DNA from: a virus
Lineage: Duplodnaviria > Heunggongvirae > Uroviricota > Caudoviricetes
IMG/VR virus record: IMGVR_UViG_2778261065_000001
Coordinates: 1 to 5,145 of that record
Strand: one strand, 5' to 3'
Length of the DNA: 5,145 bases
This document shows, piece after piece, positions 280-1,551 of this stretch; position 1 is the stretch's first letter; each line of letters opens with the position of its first letter. The notes under the pieces were generated by a model that saw only the letters and a program-made list of their open reading frames with translations, did not search any database and had not been told where the DNA came from. The position numbers and the translations under genes are program-made.

Positions 280-300
280 AAAAAACCCGCCGAAGCGGGT
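280..300 (-). terminator. Intrinsic terminator of the hok transcript
   Basis: On the minus strand: stem CCCGC / GCGGG (300..296 and 291..287) with a UUCG tetraloop, followed by a run of 7 U (286..280). Sits ~70 nt downstream of the hok stop. Confidence 0.8.
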
Positions 301-368
301 TTAGTGCGGGTGCGTTGAGGATGCCTGACACATGAGAGGTGGCGAGGGATTTCCCCCCGCCTGGTCTC

Positions 369-524
369 TTACTCCTCAGGTTCGTAAGCTGTGAAGACAG
401 CGACCTCCGTCTGGCCGGTTCGGATTCGTACCTCGCAGAGGTCTTTCCTCGTTACCAGTGCCGTCACTATGACGGTTAAACAGATGACGATCAGGGCGAT
501 TAACATCGCCTTTTGCTGCTTCAT
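369..524 (-). CDS. hok: Hok/Gef-family type I toxin (small membrane peptide), 51 aa
   Basis: ATG at 524..522, stop TAA 371..369. Product MKQQKAMLIALIVICLTVIVTALVTRKDLCEVRIRTGQTEVAVFTAYEPEE matches the Hok/Gef pattern (hydrophobic TM helix, conserved ...RKDLCEV.IR.G..EVAVF.AYE) and is near-identical to HokD/RelF as I recall it. AAGGAG lies 9 nt upstream. Confidence 0.9.
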   Translation of the reverse strand: MKQQKAMLIALIVICLTVIVTALVTRKDLCEVRIRTGQTEVAVFTAYEPEE

Positions 525-581
525 AGCCTGCTTCTCCTTGCCTTTCGGCACGTAAGAGGCTAACCTACATTTGTGAGACAT
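369..581 (-). CDS. mok: Mok-like in-frame leader ORF overlapping hok (modulator of killing), 70 aa
   Basis: Six-frame ORF 369..581; ATG at 581..579 preceded by GAGG at 593..590. The N-terminal extension MSHKCRLASYVPKGKEKQA resembles the MokC extension (MLNTCRVPLTDRKVKEKRA) as I remember it. Its start region is exactly where the predicted Sok RNA is antisense. Confidence 0.6.
   Translation of the reverse strand: MSHKCRLASYVPKGKEKQAMKQQKAMLIALIVICLTVIVTALVTRKDLCEVRIRTGQTEVAVFTAYEPEE
538..566 (+). promoter_or_regulatory. Putative sok promoter (-35 TTGCCT 538..543, 17-bp spacer, -10 TAACCT 561..566)
   Basis: Hexamers read on the plus strand, antisense to the hok start region. Same arrangement as the R1 sok promoter, which is embedded opposite the hok RBS. 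Predicted TSS about 573..575. Confidence 0.45.
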
Positions 582-645
582 AGATTGGGCCTCAGATTAA
601 TGTTAAGCGTCTTGCAGGACGCGTAATGTTAACTGGGGCTTTTCT
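573..645 (+). ncRNA. sok: Sok-like antisense RNA (type I antitoxin), about 70 nt
   Basis: Predicted from the promoter at 538..566. Single-stranded 5' tail about 573..588, then a long imperfect hairpin 589..639 (outer stem GCCUCAG/CUGGGGC with one G-U; inner stem closing on loop UUGCAG 612..617), then UUUUCU at 640..645. Antisense to the mok SD and start codon. Confidence 0.5.
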
Positions 646-692
646 CTGTCTGCCTTACAGTGGCATGCCCGAGGCAGACAGCCTCAAGCACC

Positions 693-712
693 CGCAGCAA
701 TCTTACCGATAC
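693..712 (-). promoter_or_regulatory. Putative hok/mok promoter: -10 TAAGAT (705..700), TSS near 693
   Basis: TAAGAT lies 6 nt upstream of GGGUGCUUGAGG (693..682), which resembles the 5' end of R1 hok mRNA and pairs with the 3' fbi element. No convincing -35 hexamer found. Confidence 0.35.
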
Positions 713-862
713 CGATAAGAAAACGCTATTTTTTATTGCCAGCACCTTCTATCCAGGCTAATTTATCTGCGTCAGAACGGCGCAATGCGCTCGCCTGAGA
801 TACGTTTACTTGCCATGGTAACAACAGATAACGGCAATTGTTGTTTCTGTTTTGTTTCCTTC

Positions 863-893
863 AAAAACCCCGGACCATCAATCCGGGGTTTTT
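863..893. terminator. Bidirectional intrinsic terminator between the phage operon and the hok cassette
   Basis: Stem CCCCGGA (868..874) / TCCGGGG (882..888), 7-nt loop, flanked by AAAAA (863..867) and TTTTTGTTTG (889..898). Gives a U-tract in either direction. About 85 nt downstream of the DUF551-like stop. Confidence 0.65.
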
Positions 894-978
894 GTTTGTT
901 ATCCCCAGCGGCAAATCGAATACACCATCAGCGCCACCGCCATTGCGATTCCTGCCGTTGTGAACGCTTCAGGCCAGG

Positions 979-1551
979 TCATTGATTCACCTCCTGCGGT
1001 GGTTCCGGTAGCGGCATCCAGTGAGTTGCCTGCTCAATACCATTACCCGGCTTAATCGTTGCTTCTCCTCGCCGGAATGTGCTTCCTGTATAGCGTGCGG
1101 AGCATATTAGCGGTTCAACCAGAGAGCTATCGAAATTCACCGAAATAAGCACGTTCTGGCCCTTTTCAGGCATTCGATCACTACAGCTTATCCAACTATC
1201 CGGAGTTCCCGGAGTTGGTCCATCGAATTCGGGCATGTCAGGACCTTTTCTGATAGCTTTAGCCAGCTCCAGCGGGTCATCGTAAAGCCAGTCGCCAGTT
1301 TGTGGGTGATTTGCTTCTGCAAGCTGCGCAGCCCATTCAAGACCATCTTTTTGACCTTGGAGATAATCAAGCGGCAACTCTTCATGATTACTTGCAGGTT
1401 CTGCACTATCAGCTTCGCGCCGCTTCTGTAGCTCTGCTGCCATCGCTCTCACGACTTCAACTGGTGCCCTTGCAGCAAACTCTATGTTGGTGATCAGCTC
1501 ATTAAGATATTGCTCGCTGGGATACTGTTTCTTATCGGTTATAGTGGTCAT
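979..1551 (-). CDS. DUF551-like phage protein, 190 aa
   Basis: ATG 1551..1549 with AAGGTG 8 nt upstream; stop TGA 981..979. C-terminal region DSWISCSDRMPE ... ATHWMPLPEPP matches the DUF551 signature as I recall it (WIS..DRLPE ... THWMPLPEPP). Confidence 0.75.
   Translation of the reverse strand: MTTITDKKQYPSEQYLNELITNIEFAARAPVEVVRAMAAELQKRREADSAEPASNHEELPLDYLQGQKDGLEWAAQLAEANHPQTGDWLYDDPLELAKAIRKGPDMPEFDGPTPGTPDSWISCSDRMPEKGQNVLISVNFDSSLVEPLICSARYTGSTFRRGEATIKPGNGIEQATHWMPLPEPPQEVNQ

Follow-up and report, generated by a model that had tools for sequence, protein, structure and literature searches.

The window analysed here, a stretch of 5,145 nucleotides of viral DNA, very probably carries at positions 283-705 a complete hok/mok/sok type I toxin-antitoxin cassette of the hokD/hokW subgroup, held as exchangeable cargo by a Rac/Qin-like lambdoid prophage. 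The slot that it occupies has the replication genes on one side and the Q-like antiterminator genes on the other. All elements of the cassette, in sequence as in RNA structure, are present, intact and conserved, and we infer its expression, processing, toxicity or killing, and biological role. It is an ordinary copy of a well-known module, already known, common and not new, and its own significance is small. A preliminary description, made by reading the sequence alone, had likewise announced an intact type I toxin-antitoxin locus of a well-described family and no new biology. That identification is indeed far beyond chance: Rfam RF01794 matched positions 693-519 on the minus strand over the full model length with 118.1 bits, the gathering score being 59 (E=2.4e-27). 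RefSeq annotates near-identical loci (up to 98.8%) as hokD.

Hok toxin and Mok leader

The coding part of the cassette, all on the minus strand, consists of the following features.

369-524, minus strand: hok toxin reading frame, 51 aa
369-581, minus strand: mok reading frame, 70 aa, in frame with hok
534-539, minus strand: hok Shine-Dalgarno sequence AAGGAG
590-593, minus strand: mok Shine-Dalgarno sequence GAGG, 8 nt 5' of the mok AUG
384-386, minus strand: Tyr47 codon TAC within a TACGAA motif, predicted TadA A-to-I editing site (Tyr to Cys)

The toxin matches Pfam PF01848 (HOK_GEF) over the full model (E=1.2e-23) and phrog_251 (E=2.8e-33), which PHROGs describes as 'MokW-like host killing' and files under the category 'moron'. 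At about 50 aa, with an N-terminal hydrophobic helix and conserved Cys residues, it has the build of the family toxins, and its amino-acid identity is 92% to HokW, 82% to hokC and 39% to the Hok of plasmid R1. The mok frame starts 5' of hok with its own Shine-Dalgarno sequence, spans that of hok and has its frame and stop codon in common with hok, as the annotated mokW and mokC also do in being in frame with their hok genes. Both reading frames that had been proposed from the sequence, the toxin and an in-frame Mok leader, are thus confirmed. Among relatives the mok start lies 56-58 nt 5' of the hok AUG, with the position conserved and the frame varying, and the mok Shine-Dalgarno sequence is kept in 19 of 20. 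The hok Shine-Dalgarno sequence pairs with a 5' CCUCUU in the minimum free energy (MFE) structure of the full-length mRNA and overlaps the -35 element of Sok on the opposite strand.

Codon 47 is predicted to be a TadA site: it offers a TACG motif, an A placed in a loop (A309 is unpaired in the full-length MFE structure) and recoding from Tyr to Cys, and the TACGAA motif is invariant across the 20 relatives. The hok coding sequence is 100% nucleotide-identical to that of K-12 hokD (relF, in the Qin prophage), whose mRNA is reportedly edited at the Tyr47 position to 6% (PMC12214031; PMC5630033). HokD has served as a toxic control (10.1101/2025.08.07.668861).

Folding of the hok mRNA

The transcript and its regulatory elements were assigned as listed here.

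283-693, minus strand: full-length hok mRNA, 411 nt, from the 5' end GGGUGCUUGAGG to the end of the terminator
682-693, minus strand: tac element, at the mRNA 5' end
663-693, minus strand: 5' metastable hairpin, in which tac is paired with the segment just downstream
635-643, minus strand: ucb/anti-Shine-Dalgarno element AAAAGCCCC
308-320, minus strand: fbi element CCUCAACGCACCC, identical in hokW
283-302, minus strand: intrinsic terminator of the hok mRNA, an 8-bp stem with 5 G-C pairs followed by TTTTTTGTT

The 5' end was placed at window position 693, where position 1 of the RF01794 model falls, and by homology to the R1-type, hokC, hokB and hokW leaders; the terminator, already noticed in the preliminary description, was recovered by a terminator scan. 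The full-length mRNA has an MFE of -172.9 kcal/mol (z=-6.8), and in that structure nt 1-12 are predicted to be locked to nt 374-386, that is, tac to fbi. Within the ucb element, nt 56-59 pair with the mok Shine-Dalgarno sequence, which is thereby sequestered, and the mok AUG lies inside a hairpin. In the nascent RNA (nt 1-50), as in the 3'-trimmed mRNAs, the MFE structure contains the 5' hairpin, which corresponds to the metastable 5' structure described for R1 hok (PMC9841398). By inspection, ucb and tac are complementary except at one internal position, as they are in R1 (PMC9841398). The trimmed mRNAs keep both the 5' hairpin and a closed mok Shine-Dalgarno sequence in their MFE structures and do not form the tac/ucb stem expected of the active RNA, so thermodynamic prediction does not reproduce the activation switch.

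To assess conservation of the fold, we collected 54 related loci from species-representative genomes with a four-member Hok alignment and aligned 20 of them, from Escherichia, Kluyvera, Pseudocitrobacter, Photorhabdus and Pantoea. When the structure of the window was imposed on these 20 loci, 85.6% of the cells were paired, compared with about 42% when the partners were slid, a control in which the structure is favoured because it derives from one of the aligned sequences. The compensatory counts are independent of that bias, and they gave 40 pairs changed on both sides versus 14-25 in the slid controls. In the tac/fbi helix, 89.9% of the cells were paired and U-A was replaced by C-G in 6 of the 20 loci. 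This helix also covaries with that of the R1-type locus, where GGCGCUU/AAGCGCC stands in place of GGGUGCUU/..GCACCC of the window. Covariation thus spans loci of Escherichia, Kluyvera, Photorhabdus and Pantoea as well as the R1-type plasmid locus.

Sok RNA and the promoters

The antisense RNA and the two promoters occupy the positions below.

573-643, plus strand: Sok antisense RNA, 71 nt
538-566, plus strand: Sok promoter, with -35 TTGCCT (538-543), a 17-nt spacer and -10 TAACCT (561-566)
700-705, minus strand: -10 element of the hok promoter, TAAGAT
728-723, minus strand: -35 element of the hok promoter, TAGCGT, weak (2 of 6 consensus matches)

A hairpin-forming antisense RNA had been proposed for 573-645; the RNA itself stands, and from its homology with the 71-nt sokW annotated in phage 933W, its 3' end moves to 643. 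Sok is complementary to nt 51-121 of the hok mRNA, a segment that includes the Shine-Dalgarno sequence and AUG of mok. Its predicted fold, a 14-nt single-stranded 5' tail followed by a long terminator hairpin (-29.2 kcal/mol, z=-5.3), has the shape typical of the family. Judged by its sequence, Sok would therefore be a cis-antisense RNA with its own promoter and terminator hairpin that covers the mok initiation region. The Rfam model named 'sok' marks the hok-sense leader, and annotations derived from it place Sok on the wrong strand.

The antisense promoter that had been read from the sequence is upheld, its placement being by homology: it is superimposable on that of sokW and on the TTGCGC-17-TATCCT arrangement of the R1-type plasmid locus, and the 'pro-less' mutant of sokW has the same -10 hexamer destroyed (primer YO-421, PMC8621323). 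For the hok promoter the earlier claim holds in part. The -10 element aligns with the TAGAAT of 933W and Rac, 6 nt 5' of the conserved 5' end, both it and the start G693 being placed by homology only, but the -35 element is poor. Homology to other phages ends at the hok -10, so the -35 lies in junction DNA. A consensus promoter scan, at its threshold, called neither the hok nor the Sok promoter.

Prophage context

The window is a mosaic segment of a Rac/Qin-like lambdoid prophage, and its best whole-window matches reach about 70% coverage at 93-98% identity. On the same strand upstream of the cassette lie an O-like gene, a DnaC-like gene, DUF1627, DUF977, Ead/Ea22 and DUF551 genes and finally a short hydrophobic reading frame. 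Downstream, in related genomes, there follow a phrog_1813 gene, DUF1367, DUF1364, a DUF1133 Q-like antiterminator gene and then the lysis genes. Two features on the upstream side of the cassette are listed here.

899-982, minus strand: reading frame for a 27-aa hydrophobic peptide (MTWPEAFTTAGIAMAVALMVYSICRWG) at the end of the upstream operon, with an ATGA overlap with the DUF551 gene
862-894, both strands: 13-bp hairpin, a bidirectional terminator with the better U-tail on the plus strand

The 27-aa frame is intact in all nine protein variants found, one of which has an in-frame deletion of two codons, and synonymous codon changes equalled or exceeded nonsynonymous ones in 12 of 14 comparisons.

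The description of the cassette as a moron-like insert proved reasonable. It is supported by its homology edges, by alternative cargo in the same slot and by the PHROGs category: homology between phages breaks at about 277-303 and 701-707, which are the edges of the transcript, and two E. coli genomes and several viral contigs have another plus-strand reading frame in this slot in place of hok. The cassette has its own -10 element, start site and terminator, with a weak -35, and is replaced at the same position in relatives. A base composition distinct from the upstream genes was not found (GC 0.47-0.59 in the cassette versus 0.45-0.57), and the AT-rich region lies only to the left of the cassette (76-300). 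The notion that terminators bracket the insert needs revision. The hairpin at 862-894 exists as claimed, but it is part of a 190-bp spacer between the hok -10 and the 27-aa frame (window ~721-899); this spacer, hairpin included, persists in loci without hok, and the hairpin therefore does not belong to the hok cassette.

Prevalence and comparison with known hok systems

The 423-nt cassette was matched in 4722 of 5426 complete E. coli genomes, and in 4006 of the 5426, about three quarters, a copy spans 80% or more of its length. In a spread sample of the matches most had 98-100% coverage, 92-99% identity and the annotation hokD, and a K-12-type truncation (61% coverage) was also present. Given the count of 4006 genomes, a complete copy is the usual state and the truncated hokD of K-12 a minority state. 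Completeness had been put forward as what sets this copy apart. The copy is complete and K-12 hokD is truncated, as had been said, but completeness is the norm. The K-12 picture of decayed hok loci is thus unrepresentative, and intact hokD-type cassettes are standard E. coli prophage cargo. A survey found Hok in about 80% of Enterobacteriaceae genomes, with enrichment in prophages (10.1101/2025.08.07.668861).

K-12 hokD, besides its identical coding sequence, has a nearly identical fbi and terminator and sits in the same prophage neighbourhood, upstream of rem/Q-type genes. However, homology to the window ends about 12 nt upstream of the hok Shine-Dalgarno sequence, at the end of relE. K-12 hokD consequently lacks the mok start, Sok, tac, ucb and promoter, all of which the window has.

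The hokW-mokW-sokW locus of 933W/Sp5 is 92.5% identical in nucleotide sequence and collinear from the -10 to fbi, and it likewise encodes a 51-aa toxin, an in-frame 70-aa Mok and a 71-nt Sok. We classified all differences between the two loci element by element. There were none in tac, fbi, both Shine-Dalgarno sequences, both AUGs and the Sok -35 and -10, and a change in the 5' stem is offset by one in its partner (G15-C46 versus A15-U46). The remaining differences fall in loops, in the Sok-complementary region, in hok codons, in the 3' UTR hairpin and in the terminator; complementarity of a cis-antisense RNA is automatic, so that between Sok and its target is retained despite them. Four C-terminal residues of Hok differ (FTAYEPEE in the window against FVDYESEK in HokW). 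The alignment accordingly revealed no disrupting mutation, the outcome that an intact locus would have. 933W differs from the window in its terminator and -35 region and in lacking the 190-bp spacer. Its hokW lies near the right end of the prophage, whereas the window cassette lies between replication and Q-like genes; the 27-aa frame is found upstream of hokW in 933W too.

Plasmid R1 hok/sok has the same order of elements (tac, metastable hairpin, ucb, Sok target, mok, hok, fbi, terminator), a Sok promoter that overlaps the hok Shine-Dalgarno sequence, a compensated tac/fbi helix and a match to RF01794. In contrast to the window, its mok is out of frame with hok and the locus is on a plasmid, not in a prophage. 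The hokC/mokC/sokC (gef) locus of E. coli resembles the window in its Hok (at the identity given above), its in-frame Mok and its membership of the same leader family, but it is chromosomal and non-prophage, and in K-12 an IS186 interrupts it just 3' of hokC.

Proposed mechanism and role

On the model of the R1 paradigm and of hokW-sokW, the weak promoter would yield a stable 411-nt hok mRNA in which tac is locked to fbi and the ribosome-binding sites of mok and hok are sequestered, and which would be neither translated nor bound by Sok. Slow trimming from the 3' end would remove fbi, and refolding of the 5' end would then expose the mok Shine-Dalgarno sequence and the Sok target. The short-lived 71-nt Sok, made from a stronger convergent promoter overlapping the hok Shine-Dalgarno sequence, would pair across the Shine-Dalgarno sequence and AUG of mok; this pairing would block translation of mok, and hence the coupled translation of hok, and trigger cleavage by RNase III. 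Once Sok falls, Mok would be translated through the hairpin that holds the hok Shine-Dalgarno sequence and Hok would be made, insert into the inner membrane and collapse the membrane potential.

Experiments have established the hokW-sokW pair as a functional type I toxin-antitoxin system in which the antitoxin activity of sokW depends partially on RNase III and Hfq; once the prophage is induced, sokW RNA is lost and HokW builds up in the inner membrane, the presence of hokW-sokW brings faster growth arrest after induction, and its deletion halves phage release (Takada et al. 2021, PMC8621323). By analogy with hokW, the most likely role of the cassette would be earlier lysis and phage release after induction, and we favour it because the hokW result comes from the closest relative in a prophage; a role in addiction or exclusion is possible. 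Early-operon transcription that is antiterminated after induction could also run past the 894-862 hairpin and meet the convergent Sok promoter head-on. This idea follows from the position of hok, which is downstream of the early operon and co-oriented with it, and it would fit the loss of sokW after Sp5 induction.

Prophage stabilisation, phage exclusion and persistence were the roles suggested in the preliminary description, and whether addiction or abortive infection might instead be the main role deserves weighing. Loss of the prophage, or shut-off of host transcription by an infecting phage, would deplete the unstable Sok and let Hok kill the cell. The architecture of Sok and the hok mRNA in the window is the same as in R1 hok/sok. 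Post-segregational killing and exclusion of T4 are the established behaviour of that plasmid system. A chromosomal prophage, however, is not segregationally lost as plasmids are, what was measured for hokW-sokW was a quicker arrest of growth after induction and a doubling of phage release rather than stabilisation, and the 2025 survey saw no enrichment of hok near defence systems (10.1101/2025.08.07.668861). We consider addiction or abortive infection improbable as the main role. It is about equally unlikely that the cassette, complete by sequence, is silent, that is, little transcribed, permanently repressed by Sok and devoid of phenotype, a passenger kept by prophage recombination and not by selection. 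The poor hok -35 and the absence of a promoter call would suit such a passenger, and cross-talk between the Sok RNAs of the related copies in a genome (median 2, up to 9-10) could silence all of them. Moreover, where the survey cites work on chromosomal hokA, hokB and hokC (10.1101/2025.08.07.668861), these are reportedly not activated by rifampicin and give no post-segregational killing, the latter including the sequence-complete hokA of E. coli C, hokB, and hokC of ECOR24. Against silence, all regulatory elements are undisrupted and compensatory changes maintain the RNA helices, which speaks for continuing selection on the RNA fold, and the 92.5%-identical hokW-sokW shows a phenotype in the prophage where it naturally resides.

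A candidate small RNA in the spacer

The 190-bp spacer might be the only new item at this locus. It is rare, being present in 39 of 5426 complete E. coli genomes (its body alone in 30), and it carries no annotation in any record among the matches listed. It was found in 37 IMG/VR contigs, and a search of INPHARED phages gave no match. Tentatively, on a reading that is somewhat less likely than not, it may be a separate, unannotated gene for a plus-strand small RNA of about 130 nt, which would be a second independent moron placed back-to-back with hok and would comprise a promoter TTGCCA-17-TAATTT, a seed-like single-stranded block GAUACGUUUACUUGCC and the 'bidirectional' terminator.

736-899, plus strand: candidate small RNA gene, with -35 TTGCCA (736-741), -10 TAATTT (759-764) and an RNA of ~771-899

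We compared 18 distinct versions of the spacer over window positions 725-900 and 12 over the RNA body (771-899). The TTGCCA hexamer is invariant except for one copy with TTTCCA, and the 17-nt stretch that follows varies freely. In the -10-like hexamer, a weak -10, positions T1, A2 and T6 are kept; an invariant block comes after it and runs into the terminator. The plus-strand RNA has a predicted fold of -45 kcal/mol (z=-4.2), with an 18-nt open stretch that is the invariant block, and on this strand hairpin 2 is kept through many A-U/G-U/G-C transitions. Double compensatory changes were absent across the distinct spacer versions, and an Rfam search of the spacer returned no match beyond terminator-driven noise. 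A minus-strand reading was rejected, as the predicted fold of that strand lacks hairpin 2.

Pairing of the spacer RNA with the hok mRNA or with Sok was no better than chance, being equalled by 88 and 152 of 200 shuffles, respectively. We also judged it unlikely that the RNA is a Pas sRNA; the two were set apart by reported location and genome counts, Pas being reported beside holin/lysis genes and in >1,300 genomes, against 30-39 of 5426 for the spacer. The candidate RNA could regulate host genes via Hfq or, less likely, use the overlap at its 3' end to affect the convergent operon whose last frame encodes the 27-aa membrane peptide. If transcribed, the spacer would add a prophage small RNA to the accessory repertoire of E. 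coli.

A candidate small RNA gene in the spacer beside hok

The 190-bp spacer between the hok -10 element and the 27-aa ORF contains a candidate small RNA gene that is without annotation and adjoins hok. The sequence features of this putative gene and of the neighbouring ORF are listed below.

Features of the spacer and the adjoining ORF
736-899, plus strand: candidate small RNA gene, with a terminator that carries a U-tail
within 736-899, plus strand: candidate promoter hexamers, TTGCCA-17-TAnnTT, conserved
within 736-899, plus strand: block GCGTCAGAACGGCGCAATGCGCTCGCCTGAGATACGTTTACTTG of the candidate RNA, no variation across copies
899-982, minus strand: 27-aa hydrophobic ORF (MTWPEAFTTAGIAMAVALMVYSICRWG), coupled to the DUF551 gene by an ATGA overlap

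The spacer hairpin was predicted for the plus strand specifically. The spacer itself is rare, being present in 30-39 of 5426 E. coli genomes and in 37 IMG/VR contigs, and it was found without hok as well.

Several variants of the spacer were also observed. Its terminator hairpin is precisely deleted in one viral contig (L077, ~2646-2774), and some other copies have a hairpin loop that is roughly the reverse complement of the usual one (ACCATCAAT versus ATTGATAGT). Where the hok -10 meets the spacer, the window carries a CCGATA-CCGATA tandem (706-717), which reads CCGACACCGATA in other copies.

The reading frame of the 27-aa ORF is intact in all nine protein variants found, one of which has lost two codons in frame. 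In 12 of 14 comparisons, synonymous codon changes were at least as numerous as nonsynonymous changes. Phage 933W has the same ORF, without annotation, immediately upstream of hokW. Searches of its product against PHROG and Pfam gave no match.

Conserved features of the hok leader and coding region

In the alignment of related hok loci, the mok start (window 579-581, minus strand) keeps a fixed distance of 56-58 nt from the hok AUG, on its upstream side, whereas the frame of mok relative to hok varies: mok is in frame with hok in the window, 933W and Photorhabdus, and is shifted to +1 in Rac and Kluyvera, while two loci have a short mok ORF of 19 codons. Conservation concerns the passage of translation across the hok SD rather than the Mok protein itself.

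Matches to the Rfam 'sok antitoxin' model RF01794 lie on the hok-sense strand in all loci tested (window 519-693, minus strand, and the retrieved loci L002, L004, L006 and L007), which is the strand opposite to annotated sokC, sokB and sokW, and the match stops at the hok AUG. What the model represents is therefore the leader of hok mRNA, and Sok is misplaced wherever its strand is called from this model.

The TACGAA around the Hok Tyr47 codon TAC (384-386, minus strand) shows no variation among 20 relatives that span five genera. It is the TadA A-to-I editing motif, with a predicted recoding of Tyr to Cys. For K-12 hokD mRNA, whose coding sequence is identical to the one here, 6% editing has been reported (PMC12214031; PMC5630033).

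Cargo exchange at the hok slot

The prophage position taken by hok is a cargo-exchange site. In two E. coli genomes hok is replaced by a plus-strand ORF with its own terminator.

ORFs in place of hok
L064, 309-641, plus strand: 110-aa ORF
L067, 363-644, plus strand: 93-aa ORF

In strain AH19B041 (NZ_CP196316, 3958345-3959907) the match to the 721-nt query is broken up across 1,563 bp, and a Doc-family toxin gene is annotated under the split match.

From the hok terminator to the next minus-strand gene start (GTG at 94), the window is AT-rich (76-300; GC 0.28-0.35); the two plus-strand promoter-like sites in this stretch (154-183 and 207-236) are not above chance expectation.

Copies of hokD 96-100% identical to that of E. 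coli were also observed on four contigs (L019, L029, L035 and L062, labelled Veillonella parvula MAG, Acinetobacter idrijaensis, Xanthomonas pisi and 'Candidatus Scatousia' MAG). Three of the four are shorter than 3 kb, and it seems likely that these copies reflect assembly contamination or mis-binning.
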